Shown in pieces: positions 8,101 to 15,360 of a stretch of 64,000 bases of DNA (positions are counted from its first letter, which is position 1; each line of letters opens with the position of its first letter). Made by a program: the position numbers and the translations under genes. The stretch is from positions 5,633,697-5,697,696 of the forward strand of contig JBLWFJ010000001.1 of NCBI GenBank assembly GCA_048320885.1, given 5' to 3'. The notes beneath the pieces are model-generated. The model made no database searches. It had not been told where the DNA came from and saw only the letters and a program-made list of their open reading frames with translations. The DNA comes from Nannocystaceae bacterium ST9 (GTDB lineage: Bacteria; Myxococcota_A; Polyangia; Nannocystales; Nannocystaceae).

Positions 8101-8781
8101 ATCCGCGGCGACGTCCGGATCTCGCAGCTCGATCCCGCGAGCGGGAGCGTCGGCGAGGCGCACGTCTATCCGGGCGTGCAGTCGGGCCGCAACAACGGGA
8201 TCGTGCTCGATCCCGCCGGCGAGTGGGTGGCCATCAGCGCGCTCGATCGCAGCGTTCGCGTCTGGAATTTCGCTCGCCTCGACGAGCCGCCGCTGGTCGC
8301 GATGCTGACCAGCGAGGCGCGCTCGATCATCTACGAAGCAGGGTCGGATCGCGTGCTGCTCGGCTGCTACGACGGCGCCCTGCGTTCGCTCGATCCCCAC
8401 ACCGGCGTGGTCGAGCTGCTCGACGAGGGCAAGGGCACCTTGTTCGCGCTCGAGCTGGCCGCGAACCAGTCTTGGCTGGCGTTCGGGACCGCCAACGGCG
8501 ATCTCGGCGTGCGCGACGATCTGCCCGCGCTCCACTCGAGCGAGCCCTTCGTGCTGCCGACCGAGACCGGGATCCGTCGGCTCGACTTCGTCGACGAGGA
8601 TCGTCGCTTGCTGGTCGCCGACTCGCGCGGGGGTCTGCGCCTGCTCGCGCTCGGCGAGGGGCTCGACGAGGCCAGTCTGCTCGCGCGCCTGCGCGAGGTC
8701 AGCGAGTACTGCCCGAGCGTCGACGAGCGGGTCCGCTACGCCGGCGAGGCGCCCGAGTCCGCGCGGCGCTCGTGCGAGTAG
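5152..8781 (+). CDS. Ser/Thr protein kinase with a C-terminal WD40 beta-propeller
   Basis: Hanks kinase motifs: GEGGMGIVHAA, VAIK, HRDFKPAN, DFGIA, GTPAYMSLEQ. Followed by a coiled/TM segment and many WD40 repeats (…SPDGAWLASASFDGKVRLWS…, …HTGPVQRLAFSPDGRTLASCSHDKTARVWT…). Confidence 0.88.
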   Translation: MMRSSVEGVDRSSTPEPDRARTTLRGDETLTADPSRAHEARRVDAEPLAPGRRIARFTLLRKLGEGGMGIVHAAYDDELDRKVAIKLVRGERVDELARARVLREAQALARVSHPNVVQIYDVGVHDEQIYVAMEFVAGPTLAAWTEEWRARAKAEAREAWPEILARYVDAGRGLAAAHAAGLVHRDFKPANAIVGDDGRVRVLDFGIARPIAGALPRLRPVSESGGTIGDTSADTNQSTTLTRTGAMVGTPAYMSLEQFESADVDARSDQFSFCVALWEALHGERPFEGRNAAALIWAMREGRVRTPASTSDVPTWLRDHIRRGLASDPGERWPSMDALLAALLDDPERRRRLWRRRAGLGLLTLGLLAGSLMFARAQMASAERAQAERAMALEEEAVAQRWAIAAQAERDRALAEARASALRARDTARILAARSLVRDPTLAVALLREVENRAAPGWRSAALEVLQRPVSRHVLAVHDDRVVDVEYSPDGAWLASASFDGKVRLWSSAALGSGAYYELDHGDRVFDIDFDPSGRRLVGASRERSARVWSLPTAPATRPAQPLEASHVLRGQAGILWTARFSSTGDRVVTAARSGEIWVWTLADRREPTPSQRLVIGDEIVWHAEFSPDDRNVAIAVNDGRVLIWDLERDAVRELSRHAGPAWVAHFSPDGRWIASASQTGELRLDPVDPSQGEGTTLRGHTGPVQRLAFSPDGRTLASCSHDKTARVWTFDEAGRPRGDSRVFEVGSAFALTPAFSPDGRWLALGGVEPIVRVIELAGGQAIELRGHTSDVFSLRFSPDGSQLITGSYDQSVRVWDTDWAAVERRFAGLLAPDPRGRWLIERRSDERARLWRIDSNRITPAGLTREPLAENANQQAWSSEGDWLVLPGARGELLGFEPDEANVAELAPRWRIAAVGPPTSLQISADARWLIAATRVRLRLWHFAEGLAGGPREVELGESGSHEPAVAVVAVSLDGRWLISTSIRGDVRISQLDPASGSVGEAHVYPGVQSGRNNGIVLDPAGEWVAISALDRSVRVWNFARLDEPPLVAMLTSEARSIIYEAGSDRVLLGCYDGALRSLDPHTGVVELLDEGKGTLFALELAANQSWLAFGTANGDLGVRDDLPALHSSEPFVLPTETGIRRLDFVDEDRRLLVADSRGGLRLLALGEGLDEASLLARLREVSEYCPSVDERVRYAGEAPESARRSCE

Positions 8782-8788
8782 CGAGCGA

Positions 8789-10243
8789 TCAGACCACGTC
8801 GAGCGACCAGTGTGGGTTGCGTCGGACGTGCTCGACGAGCAGCGCGTGCGCGTCGGGTTCGAACGCGACGCCACGCAGATCGACGCTCGCGACGCTCTGT
8901 AGGGTGCGGGAGTCGATCAGTACCCGCGCGACCTCGCCGGGCCAGTCGCCCTCGCCCAGCCTGCCGACATGGCGGCCGAAGGCGTCGCTGAACAGCGCGA
9001 AGCGATCCAGCGACGCGACGATCGGCAGCCCGAGCAAGGCCGCGAGCGCGTCCACGGGCGCGTGCTCGAAGACGTCGTCGTCGAGGCGGAGCTCGAAGAC
9101 ACGCAGGCCGGGCAACTCGCTCTCGCGCAGGAGCTCGGTCGCGAGATCGGGGCGCCAGGCGGTCAGGTCGAGCTCGCGCAGGCGAGGCAGTCTCAGCGAG
9201 CTCGACTCGTTGGCGCAGACCATCCGCAGGCGCTCGAGTCGAGGCAGGCGCTCGGCGGTGAACAGCTCGGCGGTGGCGTGGACGAAGCTCTCGAGCTCGC
9301 GCAGGCCGGCGAGCAGATCGGGATCGGCCGCCATGATCGCCTCGAGCGTCTCGCGGTCGGTGATCCCTCGGCCCAGCTCGAGCGCGCGCAGGCACGCGAC
9401 GATCGGCAGCTCCAGCAGCCCGGCGATCCACTCGCGCGTGCCGTGCCGCCAGGTCCGGCCCGCCGAGAGTCGAGGGTCGAAGCCGAGTCGCTGCACGAGC
9501 CCGCCCGACCAGTCGAGCCGCAGCATGTCGAGGGTCTCGGCGTGGGGCCCGAACAGGTGCCGGCGATGCTCGACGAGCGCCTCGTGAAACGCCCGATCGA
9601 GCCGCTCGCGCTCGCCGGGCTCGCTCGCGCGGGCACGCGCGAGATCCAGCGCCGCGATCAGCCCACGCGGGTCGCCCTGCCGCTGCAACCAGTCGGCGTG
9701 GACCTCCATCGCTTCGTCGGGCGGATCGCCGACGCGGATCGCCTGCTCGAGCGCGGGCTCGCGGGCGCTGCAGCGCAGCGCGACGTCGAGTTCGCGCGCG
9801 CTCGACTCGAGCCCGCGCGCAGCCCAGGCTTCGAGTTCGTCGGCGATCGCCCGGTCGCGCTCGTCGATCTCGACGAACTCCACTTCGCGCTCGCGGATCC
9901 ACTCGTCGGCCTCGCGGCGCTCCCAAGCCAGGCGCAGGCCGTGCCAGCGCAGCCGCTCGATCGGCTGATCGCCGCGCCGCGGGTGGCGAGGATCGAAGGC
10001 GTGGCGAAGCTCGTCCTCCTCGACGAGCCCGACCGCGCTGCCGGCCTCGCGTTCGAAACGCTCGACGATCGCCCGCGCGGCCGCTTCGTCGAGGCCCTGG
10101 GCGAACACCCATTGCTGCTCGACGATGTCCTTGCACTCCTTGAGCCCTCGCCCGGTCAGCTCGCGCATCAACTTGATCGCCGCGATCTTCTGATTGCCGC
10201 CGAGGTAGCGCAGGGAGTAGGTCATGTCGTTCATGCCGTTCAT
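8789..10243 (-). CDS. Protein with an N-terminal ribosomal bL12 C-terminal-domain-like module, a TIGR02996 repeat-companion motif and LRR-like repeats
   Basis: The N-terminus (MNGMNDMTYSLRYLGGNQKIAAIKLMRELTGRGLKECKDIVE…GLDEAAARAIVERFEREAGSAV) resembles the bL12 CTD ([24 protein letters not shown]…). Then …AMEVHADWLQRQGDPRG… (TIGR02996-like), then L-rich repeats. Its ATG overlaps the upstream paralogue's stop (ATGA). Confidence 0.75.
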   Translation of the reverse strand: MNGMNDMTYSLRYLGGNQKIAAIKLMRELTGRGLKECKDIVEQQWVFAQGLDEAAARAIVERFEREAGSAVGLVEEDELRHAFDPRHPRRGDQPIERLRWHGLRLAWERREADEWIREREVEFVEIDERDRAIADELEAWAARGLESSARELDVALRCSAREPALEQAIRVGDPPDEAMEVHADWLQRQGDPRGLIAALDLARARASEPGERERLDRAFHEALVEHRRHLFGPHAETLDMLRLDWSGGLVQRLGFDPRLSAGRTWRHGTREWIAGLLELPIVACLRALELGRGITDRETLEAIMAADPDLLAGLRELESFVHATAELFTAERLPRLERLRMVCANESSSLRLPRLRELDLTAWRPDLATELLRESELPGLRVFELRLDDDVFEHAPVDALAALLGLPIVASLDRFALFSDAFGRHVGRLGEGDWPGEVARVLIDSRTLQSVASVDLRGVAFEPDAHALLVEHVRRNPHWSLDVV

Positions 10244-11673
10244 GTCGGCGCCTCGGGCAGCAGCAGCGCCGGCAGGATGACCCGGACGGTCTCGAGCTGC
10301 TGACGGGTCGCGGGTTCGAGGGTCATCGCGCGCAGATCGATCCGTTCGAGCCCGCGCAGCTCGCTGCCGAGCACGATCAGCGCGCGCGCCAGCCAGGTCC
10401 CGCAAGGAGTCCCGCGATCGAGCAGGGTCAAGCCGCGCAGCGGCTCGATCAGCGGCAGCCGCAAGAGCGCGCGCAGCTGCTGCTCGGGCGTCGGGTCGTC
10501 GGAGCCCTGGATCAGCGAGTCGAAGTCGAAGCCGAGCGTCAGCTCGCGCAGCGCCGGCAGGCGAGCGCGCGAGAGCGACTCGTGCACGGTCTGCACCGAC
10601 CAGACGTCGAGGCGCAGGCGCTCGAGCGCGGGCAGCTCGAGGCCGCGCGCGTGGAGATCCCAGCGAACCTCGAGCTCGCGCAGGCCGGTCAGCGCGGGCC
10701 AGCGAGTGGTGTCGCGGCGGGCCGAGTGACGGGTCAGCGCGAGCGAGCGCAGGTTGGCCAGGGTCGCCGGGTCGACCGACGCGAGCGCGTCGATGTCCGG
10801 GACTCGAAGTGCGCGCACGCAGGTGGCCAAGGGCAGCTCGAGCGCGTCGCGGATCGTCTGCGTGGTCACGCGCTCGTCGAAGCCCAAGCCGAACATCACG
10901 CCACCGCGCCAGTCGATCGTCAGCAGGTCGAGCGAGGCGTGCAGTGGCCCGAAGAGCTGGTGACGATGATGCTCGCGCAGCCGAAGGGTCTCGCGCTCGA
11001 GCTCGGCTCGCCGCGAGGGATCGCTCTCGCGCTCGGCCGCGAGCCCGGTCGCGATCAACAGCCCGCGCGGGTCGGCTTGTCGCTGTAACCAGTCGCCGTA
11101 GACCGCGAGCGCCACGCTCGGATCGTCGTGAGTGCGGATGGCCTGCTCGAGCTCGGGCTCGCGCGCGGCCAGTCCAGCCAGCAGCTCGACCTCGCGCGCG
11201 CAGACCAACGCGCCGCGCTCGGCCAGCGCTCGCGCGTGCTCCTCGAACACCGAGCTCGCGTCGCGGCCCGCGGGGATCGCCAGGGTCTCGATCGCTTCGG
11301 GCCACTCGCCGAGCCGGCCGCGCTGACGGACGACGCCCTCGCGGGTCAGCCGCAGCCGCTCGATCGGCTGGTCGCCGCGGAGCGGGTGGCGAGGATCACC
11401 GGCGAAGCGATCCTCGGCCTCCATCTGCAGCTCGACCTCGCTGCCGAGCTCGGCGAAGCGACGGATCAACGCGCGCGCTCGATCGACCCCGACCCCGCGC
11501 AGGAACACCGCGTTGTCGTCGATCAGCTGGCGAGCGGCAGGGAAGTCGAGGCCGGTCAGCTCGCGGACCAGCGAGACGGCGAGGTGGGGGCTGCGGCCGG
11601 ACACGTGACGCAGCGCGGCCGTCGGTTCTGCGAGCACGCGAGGATCGTGCCGCTCGTCGGGGCGACGAGGCAA
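10240..11673 (-). CDS. Paralogue of the previous gene: bL12-CTD-like + TIGR02996 + LRR protein
   Basis: …LAVSLVRELTGLDFPAARQLIDDNAVFLRGVGVDRARALIRRFAELGSEV… then …LAVYGDWLQRQADPRG… It has the same architecture as the gene at 8789-10243 and sits in tandem with it. The exact start is uncertain (the listed ORF start was used). Confidence 0.7.
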   Translation of the reverse strand: MPRRPDERHDPRVLAEPTAALRHVSGRSPHLAVSLVRELTGLDFPAARQLIDDNAVFLRGVGVDRARALIRRFAELGSEVELQMEAEDRFAGDPRHPLRGDQPIERLRLTREGVVRQRGRLGEWPEAIETLAIPAGRDASSVFEEHARALAERGALVCAREVELLAGLAAREPELEQAIRTHDDPSVALAVYGDWLQRQADPRGLLIATGLAAERESDPSRRAELERETLRLREHHRHQLFGPLHASLDLLTIDWRGGVMFGLGFDERVTTQTIRDALELPLATCVRALRVPDIDALASVDPATLANLRSLALTRHSARRDTTRWPALTGLRELEVRWDLHARGLELPALERLRLDVWSVQTVHESLSRARLPALRELTLGFDFDSLIQGSDDPTPEQQLRALLRLPLIEPLRGLTLLDRGTPCGTWLARALIVLGSELRGLERIDLRAMTLEPATRQQLETVRVILPALLLPEAPT

Positions 11674-11692
11674 GCCAGGCGCGTGCAGGGGT

Positions 11693-12760
11693 TCAGGGCA
11701 CGTCGAAGACCATCGTCCAGATCACTCCGCTGGCCGAGCCGACCTCGGTCGCGACGCCCTCGACCGGCAGGCCGTCGATCTCGAGCTCGAACAGCTCGCC
11801 GAGGCCCGGCCCGATCAAGACGAATTTACCGTTGCTGGAGCTCGCGTCGGTGGTGAAGCTGGTCTCGCTCGCGTCGAGGTAGCGGACATGCGCGCCGCTG
11901 CTCGGGTCGGCCGAGACCACGCGCGCGCCCGCGATCGGGTCGCCCGTGATCGCCTCGCGGATCAGCCCGACGACCCCGCCGGTCTCGCCGAGCGGAAGCT
12001 GGTTGGCGAATTCCGGATCGGCCTCGAGCATCGCGGTGTACGAGCTCAGCAGATCGAGGGGGACGACCCAGAGATCGTGAACCGGATTGCCCGTGTCGTA
12101 GAAGGCGCCATTGATCGGCGTGGCGATCTTGGTGGCGGTCAGGGCGTCGCCCGTGCCCGAGATGAGCGCGACCAGGTAGAGCGGCACGCTCACGGGGGCG
12201 TCGATGCTGAGAAAGTCGAAGCGCCCGCCCGCGTCGCTCGTGCCCATCGCGACCGCGCTCGCGGAGGCCGGCATCAACGCGGCCTGCAGCGCGGCCGCGA
12301 CCTTCACGTCGGCGTCCGCGATCGGCTCGAGCGTCTCGAAGTCCAGCACTCGACCGGTGAAGCGCATCCGACAGCCGGGATCGACCGGCTCGCAGGTGCC
12401 GGCCAGCGGCGGGGCGTCCTGGAAGCGCACGCACAGCTTCGAAGCGCACTCCGAGCTGGCCAGGCAGGCGCTGCCATCGATCGCGCCCTCGCCCGGCGCG
12501 AACTCGGGGCACGCCTCGAAGCCGCCGCCCGTCTCGCTCTCCGAGCCCGTCTCGGTCTCCGAGCTGGTCTCGCCGTCCGAGCTGGTCGAGGTCGTCGCGG
12601 TCTCGCCCTCGTCTTCGCCGGTGGTCGAGCTCGAGCTCGATCCCGACTCGCTCTCGCTCTCGCTCGTACCAGTCTCGCCCTCGGCCGGAGGATCGGGGTC
12701 GTCGCAGCCGGCGAGCAGCAGTGAAGACACCAAGCACGAGAGTTTGGCGAGGCGAGACAT
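11693..12760 (-). CDS. Lipoprotein, acidic S/T/E-rich linker plus Cys-rich region (hypothetical)
   Basis: Internal ATG giving MSRLAKLSCLVSSLLLAGC (lipobox). Then …ETGTSESESESGSSSSSTTGEDEGE… linker, CPEF…C…C…C. C-terminal beta-rich domain. Confidence 0.65.
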   Translation of the reverse strand: MSRLAKLSCLVSSLLLAGCDDPDPPAEGETGTSESESESGSSSSSTTGEDEGETATTSTSSDGETSSETETGSESETGGGFEACPEFAPGEGAIDGSACLASSECASKLCVRFQDAPPLAGTCEPVDPGCRMRFTGRVLDFETLEPIADADVKVAAALQAALMPASASAVAMGTSDAGGRFDFLSIDAPVSVPLYLVALISGTGDALTATKIATPINGAFYDTGNPVHDLWVVPLDLLSSYTAMLEADPEFANQLPLGETGGVVGLIREAITGDPIAGARVVSADPSSGAHVRYLDASETSFTTDASSSNGKFVLIGPGLGELFELEIDGLPVEGVATEVGSASGVIWTMVFDVP

Positions 12761-12810
12761 CGCCCGAGTGGACCACCGATTTCCGTGGTCCGACGAGAAC
12801 GGCGTCTCGC

Positions 12811-13314
12811 TCAGCCAACCCGCTCGTACACGAAGATCGTCCAGGCCCAGGCGTGACGATCGTCGACCTCGTGACGCTCGCGCGAGACCTCGCGCCACCG
12901 ATCGAGGTCGAACTTCGGAAACACGGCGTCACCCTCGAACTCGGCGTGGACGCGGGTCAGGTAGATGCGATCGGCCACGCCCAGCGCCTCGGCATAGAGC
13001 GCGGTCCCGCCGATCACGAACGCCTCGCGCTCGCCGGCCGCCCGTGCGAGTTCGAGCGCCTCGCTCAGCGAGCGGACCACCTGCGCGCCCTCGGCCGGAT
13101 AGTCGACCCGCGAAGTGACCACCACGTTGACGCGATTGGGCAGCGGCTTGCCGCGCGACTCCCAGGTCCGCCGGCCCATGATCACCCAGTGGCCCTCGGT
13201 CGTGCGCTTGAAGTGGCGGAACTCGTCGGGCAGCCGCCAGGGCAGATCGTTGTCGCGGCCGATCACGTCGTTCTCGGCCGCCGCGGCGATCAGCGAGACC
13301 TGCATGCCGCTCAT
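12811..13314 (-). CDS. folA: Dihydrofolate reductase
   Basis: [53 protein letters not shown]… Canonical DHFR. Its ATG overlaps the thyA stop (ATGA). Confidence 0.9.
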
Positions 13315-14105
13315 ACGGCGACCTCGGCCTTGATGTGCGGGTGCGGATCGTAGCCGCGCAGCTCGAAGTCCTCGTAGCGATAGTCGAAGAGCGAGTCGGG
13401 CGTACGCAGGATGTGCATGGTCGGCAGCGGTCGTGGTTCGCGGCTCAGCTGCAGGCGAGCCTGGTCGAGGTGGTTGAGGTAGAGGTGCGCGTCGCCGAAG
13501 CTGTGCACGAACACGCCGGGCTCGAGCCCGACGACCCGGGCGATCATCAGGGTCAGCAGCGCGTAGCTGGCGATGTTGAAGGGCACGCCGAGGAACACGT
13601 CGGCGCTGCGCTGGTAGAGCTGACAGCTGAGCCTGCCGGCCGCGACGTGGAACTGGAACAGGCAGTGGCAGGGCGCCAGCGCCATGTCCGGGAGATCGCC
13701 GACGTTCCAGGCCGAGACGACCAGCCGGCGCGAGTCGGGGTTGCGGCGGAGCTGATCGATCAGCTCGGCCATCTGATCGATCGTCCGTCCGTCGGCGCAG
13801 GTCCAGCTGCGCCACTGCTTGCCGTAGATCGGCCCGAGCTCGCCCCGCTCGTCGGCCCACGCGTCCCAGATCTTGACCTTGTGCTCGCGCAGGTAGGCGA
13901 CGTTGGTCTCGCCGCGCAGGAACCAGAGCAGCTCGTGGATGATCGATTCGAGGTGCAGCTTCTTGGTCGTGACCAAGGGGAAGCCCTCGCCGAGATCGAA
14001 GCGGAGCTGATGACCGAACACGCTGAGCGTGCCGACCCCCGTGCGATCGGACTTGCTCACGCCCTCGTCGAGGATCCGCTGCATCAGCGCGAGGTAGGGA
14101 CGCAC
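13311..14105 (-). CDS. thyA: Thymidylate synthase
   Basis: …[10 protein letters not shown]…[29 protein letters not shown]…DAHLYLNH… Full-length ThyA signature, including the catalytic Cys in PCH. Confidence 0.95.
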
Positions 14106-14253
14106 GCCGGGAGCTTACGCGGACCCGACGGCGTGAGCTCCGCGAAGCCCACCACGACGAGCGGAGAATGCTCCAGGGCGAGGCGGGAAATTTTCGCTGG
14201 CGAACGCCGATTGAACCCCGGGGCCGGCCCCGCGCACGATAACTTGGCTTCGA
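14106..14253. promoter_or_regulatory. Divergent intergenic region between thyA and the nitrogenase-like operon; presumed promoter(s)
   Basis: 148-bp gap between two divergently oriented starts. No convincing sigma-54 or sigma-70 consensus was recognised. Confidence 0.3.
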
Positions 14254-15360
14254 ATGGAGCGCATCACCTTGTTTGGCAAGGGTGGGATCGGCAAGTCGAC
14301 GATCGCCTGTGGGATCTCGGCCAGCCTGGCCGCGAGCGGTCGTCGGGTGCTGCACGTCGGCTGCGATCCCAAGCACGACTCGACCGCCGCGCTGCTCGGC
14401 GGCCAGATGATCGAGCCGGTCATCGATCGCATCACCGCGGTCAAGGGCGTGCGGATCGAGGACATCGTGGTCCGCTCGCCGCTCGGGATCGACTGCGTGG
14501 AGGCGGGCGGACCGGCGGCGGGCGTCGGCTGTGGTGGGCGCGGCATCACCCGGATGCTCGAGATCTTCGACGAGGCCGGCCTGCTCGCGCCCGATCGCTA
14601 CGACCTCGCGCTCTACGACGTGCTCGGCGACGTCGTGTGTGGCGGGTTCGCGGCCCCGCTGCGGCGAGGGATCGGCGAGAAGGTGGTGATCGTCACCTCC
14701 GAGGAGCTGATGTCGCTCTACGCGGCCAACAACATCGCGCGGGCGGTCGTGCACTACGCGAGCAACGGCATCGCGCTCGCCGGCCTGGTCGTCAACCTCA
14801 AGGACCCCGACGCCGATCGGCAGGTCGTCGAGCGCTTCGCCGAGCGGATCTCGACCAAGATCCTGTGCTGGGTGACCCGCGATCCGCTGATCCGCCAGGC
14901 CGAGTACGAGCGCACGACCGTGACCGAGATGGCCCCGCTCGCGCCGATCGCCAAGCTGTTCCGCGAGCTCGCCGATCAGCTGCTCACGCTCGACGTGAAG
15001 GGCACGCCGCTGCCGACTCCGATGGAAGAAGAGCAGTTCTACTTGGCCGCGCGCAGCCGGTTTCGCGCCGACGTCAGGGCCGAGCCGACGCCTGCGGCCA
15101 AGCCCGCGGTCCAGGCCACGCGCGTCGAGCCGGCGCCCGAGCGCTCCGACGTCCGGCCCTCCTCGCTCGCGCGGGGGCCCAAGGTCAGCGCCGATCGTCA
15201 GCGCAAGCAGGCCGAGGTCGAGCGCTACGTCCACGAGCTGCGGGCCGGCGCGCGGGCAGTCCGACTCGGGTTGGTCGGCGCCGACGAGGCGCTGCGTCGC
15301 CTCCAGGCCGCGTTCCCCGAGCAGGCCCGGACGCTTCGCCGCGAGGAGCTGCTGGCGTGA
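14254..15360 (+). CDS. NifH/BchL/ChlL-family Fe-protein ATPase (nitrogenase-like reductase component) with a C-terminal extension
   Basis: FGKGGIGKSTIACGISASLA (P-loop). VGCDPKHDSTAALLGG (switch I). CVEAGGPAAGVGCGGRGI (Cys97 equivalent). YDVLGDVVCGGFAAPLR (Cys132 equivalent). Then ~80 aa of Pro/Ala/Arg-rich and helical extension not present in NifH. Confidence 0.9.
   Translation: MERITLFGKGGIGKSTIACGISASLAASGRRVLHVGCDPKHDSTAALLGGQMIEPVIDRITAVKGVRIEDIVVRSPLGIDCVEAGGPAAGVGCGGRGITRMLEIFDEAGLLAPDRYDLALYDVLGDVVCGGFAAPLRRGIGEKVVIVTSEELMSLYAANNIARAVVHYASNGIALAGLVVNLKDPDADRQVVERFAERISTKILCWVTRDPLIRQAEYERTTVTEMAPLAPIAKLFRELADQLLTLDVKGTPLPTPMEEEQFYLAARSRFRADVRAEPTPAAKPAVQATRVEPAPERSDVRPSSLARGPKVSADRQRKQAEVERYVHELRAGARAVRLGLVGADEALRRLQAAFPEQARTLRREELLA

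Follow-up and report, generated by a model that had tools for sequence, protein, structure and literature searches.

In bL12, the C-terminal domain (CTD) is the hook with which the ribosome recruits EF-Tu, EF-G, IF2 and RF3. Two adjacent genes, A and B, both on the minus strand in the marine myxobacterium Nannocystaceae bacterium ST9, raise the question of what a homologue of this hook does at the N-terminus of leucine-rich repeat (LRR) proteins. If cells put the bL12 hook on non-ribosomal scaffolds, translation factors could be sequestered, delivered or sensed off the ribosome; if true, translation would be controlled, or its machinery surveyed, at a further level, for which no experimental description in bacteria was found in the literature searched. 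If the module is only structural, the fusion is an ordinary case of lineage-specific domain accretion. The locus is a compact test case, with the hook intact in one paralogue and degraded in the other and with at least one naturally hookless relative (P0013), and relatives of A and B exist in the cultured genera Enhygromyxa and Plesiocystis. In this study, the two genes were analyzed within a window of 64,000 nucleotides, i.e. the whole stretch of DNA considered.

Gene B (8789–10243, minus strand), as read from its open reading frame and translation, encodes 484 amino acids comprising a bL12-CTD-like domain, a WGR-like domain, a TIGR02996 helical region and an RNI-type LRR domain; the product is 100% identical to NCBI P0001, which is named 'ribosomal protein L7/L12'. 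Gene A (10240–11673, minus strand; 477 amino acids from a TTG at 11673) is the divergent upstream paralogue with the same four domains, and is started by NCBI at a GTG at 11637 (10240–11637, minus strand; 465 amino acids, P0016). The stop codon of A and the start codon of B overlap in an ATGA read directly in the sequence at 10240–10243 (minus strand), an arrangement of translational coupling, and a GAGG lies 7 nt upstream of the ATG of B. Aligned from end to end, the products share 36% identity (E = 2e-65), so that the description of the genes as ATGA-coupled tandem paralogues in the initial annotation holds. Outside the N-terminal domain, A retains every column that is invariant in the family, and no closer orthologue of A was found in the collections searched. 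Other Nannocystaceae have a single gene at this locus, to which B is orthologous. B was shown to be the ancestral copy at the locus, and A to be a tandem duplicate that diverges fast and is translated together with B. A scan of positions 8500–14400 for sigma-70 promoters and intrinsic terminators gave nothing beyond the shuffled expectation and is uninformative on operon structure in this genome of 70% GC. Both proteins start straight with a folded domain and lack a signal peptide, as judged from the sequence and the AF2 model, and are cytoplasmic; we take them to be soluble adaptor proteins.

The N-terminal module of B (residues 8–76; 10016–10222, minus strand) has the topology beta-alpha-alpha-beta-alpha-beta in an AF2 model with a pLDDT of 88. 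It matches Pfam PF00542 with E = 3.7e-8 and 34 bits, exceeding the gathering score of 25.9, and PDB bL12 chains by phmmer with E = 1.2e-4, while the family profile finds Thermotoga maritima L12 with E = 4.7e-10. The predicted fold superposes on solved bL12 CTDs, and Foldseek aligned it to 1ctf with a TM score of 0.87, an r.m.s.d. of 1.2 Å and 32% identity. Sequence, profile and predicted fold thus identify the module, well beyond chance, as a true homologue of the bL12 CTD. The corresponding 73-residue domain of A (11419–11637, minus strand) reaches only 15.8 bits against PF00542 on its own, under the gathering threshold; its bL12-CTD fold is confidently predicted despite a degenerated helix 4/5 surface. 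The resemblance proposed in the initial annotation is therefore confirmed, for B by all five methods (PF00542, phmmer, family profile, AF2 and Foldseek); the peptides quoted there are present (B residues 19–71 and ADWLQRQGDPRG), and neither an unrelated helical family nor the lack of an alpha/beta fold was found. ClpS was also considered as the parent of the module and was rejected, as this adaptor is a relative by fold only, with 7–14% identity, no sequence-profile match and a Z score below that of bL12, which was ahead by every measure.

The module nevertheless differs from its ribosomal counterparts (PF00542; 1ctf, 1dd3 and 8yeq) in that it lies at the N-terminus of a 484-residue non-ribosomal protein without the flexible hinge. 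In addition, the family carries an LRY motif on beta1, and the invariant residues R12, Y13 and L14 on this strand are family-specific, without a bL12 counterpart. Within the family, the mean pairwise identity of the module is 53%, compared with 50% in the WGR-like domain, 56% in the helical region and 39% in the LRR domain; by this measure, the module was shown to be conserved equally with the remainder of the protein, as expected under purifying selection. A six-frame scan of the whole window with a hidden Markov model of the N-terminal domain returned matches only in A and B.

The remainder of each protein forms a diverged scaffold. A WGR-like, beta-rich domain, missed in the initial annotation, separates the bL12 module from the TIGR02996 helices; in B (residues 77–150; 9794–10015, minus strand) it consists of a beta-sheet and a helix, with the invariant loop FDPRHPxRGDQPxxRLR and the motif W-x-RG-x-x-x-E-W, and in A it spans 11197–11418 (minus strand). 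Its divergence is such that WGR (PF05406) has no Pfam match in either protein. The helical region of B (residues 151–240; 9524–9793, minus strand) contains a TIGR02996-type motif, ADWLQRQGDPRG, at 9662–9697, and the equivalent segment of A (11047–11160, minus strand) contains GDWLQRQADPRG at 11062–11097, the translation of which was checked. TIGR02996 scores 17.3 bits in A (E = 0.003) against a cut-off of 29.05 and is below detection in B; it matches at E ≤ 0.1 in 16 of 20 alignment rows (best E 5.5e-11), A being counted twice in these rows, as the window open reading frame and as P0016. The helical region of B was, moreover, aligned by hhalign with TIGR02996-positive relatives scoring 50.9 bits, and by sequence comparison the region in A and B is homologous to TIGR02996 but diverged. 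Of the TIGR02996/LRR architecture first proposed, the non-ribosomal scaffold stands and the TIGR02996 assignment is weak.

The RNI-type LRR solenoid of B (residues 241–484; 8792–9523, minus strand) resembles the STM4015 family, and its curved alpha/beta solenoid superposes on the LRRs of RNase inhibitor, F-box or NLR proteins. The STM4015 model itself (NF038076, cut-off 275 bits) did not match B and matched seven of the 20 alignment rows weakly (best E 5.5e-7); canonical Myxococcus-type relatives reach only 226 bits against it. In the comparison of scaffolds by hhalign, A1 against A4 gave a probability of 99.65% and E = 5e-25 over 366 columns. Relatives of the scaffold carry Pfam WGR, TIGR02996 and NF038076, and PDB 2ra8 (Bacteroides fragilis Q64V53), a fold relative, has the same fold as the scaffold of A and B. 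The canonical WGR–TIGR02996–STM4015-type proteins at the Pyxidicoccus and Myxococcus loci L015, L018, L022 and L024 and at the Enhygromyxa locus L039 share this scaffold. However, they lack the bL12 module and have a Pfam-detectable WGR domain, an acidic linker and a conserved Y..VGE C-terminus, whereas A and B have a strongly diverged WGR domain, sub-threshold TIGR02996 and STM4015 regions and the extra N-terminal domain. At the level of sequence, A and B were thus shown to be a Nannocystaceae-specific, diverged branch of the myxobacterial WGR–TIGR02996–LRR (STM4015-type) family, and this branch to have acquired an N-terminal domain homologous to the bL12 CTD. In the literature searched, TIGR02996, non-ribosomal PF00542 and STM4011–4015 were mentioned only incidentally.

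On this scaffold, the bL12 module occurs only in members of the Nannocystaceae. Orthologues of B are located between thyA-folA and a convergent kinase/WD40 gene at L001, L002 and L007, and the position next to thyA-folA is stable across genera, without signs of mobile elements. Reading frames extracted for L010, L019 and L020 were wrong and were left out. A functional link to thyA-folA was considered and rejected, as the synteny does not extend beyond close relatives and members of the P0017 clade are located elsewhere. Several paralogues occur per genome, with tandem duplications that reach three copies at L004, and P0051 has two bL12 modules ahead of its WGR/TIGR02996/LRR scaffold. Two relatives are without the module: P0013 (46% identical to B), in which the absence was confirmed on the DNA, and the in-genome paralogue P0007 (53% identical to B), in which it is absent in the protein as called only. 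Since P0013 is closer to B than A is and yet has no module, the module is dispensable for the core function. No conserved neighbouring GTPase gene was found, and no relatives were found in the phage and plasmid record collections searched by tblastn or among the IMG/VR viral contigs.

Beyond this family, a total of 6325 cluster representatives, genuine bL12 included, match the family N-terminal profile at E ≤ 1e-3. The best 150 of these are all non-ribosomal and are tandem arrays, half-repeats of helices 4/5, or kinase, KAP NTPase or LRV fusions. The fusion in A and B is real, but non-ribosomal copies of PF00542 form a large, unstudied pool to which it belongs. Most closely related to the module are bL12-CTD-like modules, free or in repeats, which have expanded in the Nannocystaceae. 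Like A and B, the seven-repeat protein P0020 of Nannocystis pusilla, the two-domain acidic-tail proteins of Enhygromyxa and the KAP NTPase, kinase and LRV fusions have PF00542 off the ribosome, with different partners and copy numbers, and none of these proteins has the WGR/TIGR02996/LRR scaffold. The second domain of the Enhygromyxa acidic-tail proteins is the nearest relative of the B module, with up to 60% identity and LRY[LV]xG in common. Phage proteins with embedded bL12 domains have already been published (Mizuno et al., 2019, Nat. Commun.; PMC6375957); their CTDs are ∼30–40% identical, lie inside far larger unrelated polypeptides and are lacking in some homologues. The authors noted retained contact residues for uL11, EF-G and EF-Tu and proposed translation-factor interfaces, and for one of seven phages the purified ribosome fractions contained a peptide of the protein (PMC6375957). 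These phages infect Proteobacteria and their proteins have other flanking regions, whereas the present family is chromosomal, confined to the Nannocystaceae and fused to WGR/TIGR02996/LRR. The idea is thus less new than had been implied, as NCBI and Pfam already flag A- and B-like proteins themselves and the phage proteins are known.

Whether the module could still act as a hook depends on the surface formed by helices 4 and 5, which in bL12 bind IF2, EF-Tu, EF-G and RF3 (PMC6753160). Residue positions are given in Escherichia coli bL12 numbering, and family counts were made over 28 domains. Gene B retains K65, I66, I69, K70, R73, T76, G79, L80, K81, E82, K84 and D85. Across the family, retention is high for K65 (21/28), I69 (26/28), K70 (24/28), R73 (26/28), L80 (24/28) and K84 (25/28), whereas E82 is retained in only 16 domains and K81 in only five, with Ala in 12. 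Gene A has the changes K65P, V66H, K70S, G79D, L80F, K81P and E82A; among the factor-binding positions checked it retains only R73, with I69V and K84R as conservative replacements. The residue-level list of L12–factor contacts reportedly goes back to Kothe in 2004, Diaconu in 2005 and Helgstrand in 2007. L7/L12 in isolation reportedly stimulates the GTPase activity of EF-G. Judged by alignment, the helix 4/5 residues used by bL12 persist in B and in most relatives, whereas A has lost most of them; as regards the functional surface, the original wording 'both proteins' was therefore too generous, and the expected retention is seen in B and not in A. Furthermore, these residues are also a structural signature of the fold and recur in hundreds of unrelated non-ribosomal PF00542 modules, so that their retention is no proof of GTPase binding; from the alignments, it is a property of the PF00542 domain family and is not specific to fusions of this type.

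The reading that we tentatively prefer is that A and B are non-ribosomal adaptors in which the module of B serves as a docking site for the translation machinery or a related GTPase. Docking by a B-type module is plausible: it would use the retained basic and hydrophobic helix 4/5 face (K19, I20, I23, K24, R27, L34 and K38 of B, the equivalents of K65, I66, I69, K70, R73, L80 and K84), which corresponds to the face with which bL12 takes hold of the factor G domains (EF-Tu, EF-G, IF2 and RF3). The partner of B would be either the ribosomal GTPase-associated centre or a GTPase, be it translational or related to those, and would be brought beside the clients of the variable LRR solenoid and the WGR-like domain. 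In A, the face of which has decayed, the domain would persist purely as a structural cap or serve an altered partner, and A may work jointly with B. Against docking count the poor retention of K81 and E82 across the family, the relatives that lack the module (P0013 and, as called, P0007) and the absence of a conserved neighbouring GTPase gene. Gene A, moreover, remains intact despite its lost surface, and the full-length AF2 model of B has a pTM of 0.82, according to which the module could be packed against the remaining protein. A wider version of docking is rather unlikely, namely that non-ribosomal bL12-CTD modules form a hitherto unrecognized off-ribosome system for capturing or regulating translational GTPases, in which a client bound by the LRR and WGR domains would be tethered through B to EF-Tu, EF-G or IF2, or to the ribosomal GTPase centre, and a signalling or surveillance input would be coupled straight to translation, with A as a surface-dead partner or regulator.

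The alternative that survives best, although on balance we consider it unlikely, is that the module no longer binds factors and has been co-opted, within the molecule, as a structural or regulatory cap that packs on or gates the scaffold of WGR-like domain and LRR, with function residing wholly in the WGR–TIGR02996–LRR core. The state of A, which keeps the predicted fold without K65, V66, K70, G79, L80, K81 and E82, is consistent with such a cap, as are the relatives that lack the domain (P0013 and, as called, P0007) and the canonical family members across Myxococcota that work without it. The pTM of the four-domain model, the continuation of beta3 of the module straight into the first strand of the next domain, and the invariant R12, Y13 and L14 point in the same direction. 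However, K70, R73 and K84, which are exposed and basic, persist in 24–26 of the 28 family domains, as a role in structure alone would not demand, and the module is as conserved as the remaining protein.

By analogy with the integrated decoys of NLRs, the LRR scaffold might instead present the bL12 CTD to lure a phage or toxin factor directed against the stalk, binding of which would trigger a partner effector. The similarity of the LRR to those of NLRs and RNase inhibitor would suit a decoy, as would the multiple paralogues per genome, the tandem duplications, the fast evolution of A and the LRR as the most variable domain. PF00542 is, moreover, fused elsewhere to a KAP NTPase and a Ser/Thr kinase, and in the literature to an orthocaspase, and bL12 is indeed a target of some factors, such as Cami1 on the stalk (PDB 8phj, in the Foldseek listing). 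Nevertheless, a decoy is quite improbable, given that effector or NTPase domains are absent in A, B and their conserved neighbours, that neither A nor B matched any PADLOC-DB model at E ≤ 0.1, and that the family has no relatives in the phage, plasmid and IMG/VR collections and occupies a stable chromosomal site beside the housekeeping genes thyA-folA.

That A and B are genuine or alternative ribosomal stalk proteins, as the PF00542 match and the NCBI name might suggest, can hardly be entertained, and canonical stalk membership is refuted because the defining bL12 features fail: the N-terminal dimerization and uL10-binding domain (PF16320) is absent in both by Pfam, whereas all genuine bL12 matches have PF16320 and PF00542; TIGR00855 scores 30 bits for B and 12.1 for A against a cut-off of 84.4; 408 of the 484 residues of B are unrelated domains; and the genes adjoin thyA-folA rather than lying in an rplJ-rplL context. 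The name 'ribosomal protein L7/L12' on LRR proteins of 480 amino acids, and likewise on proteins with many repeats, for example the seven-repeat protein of N. pusilla, is thus a PGAP annotation error.

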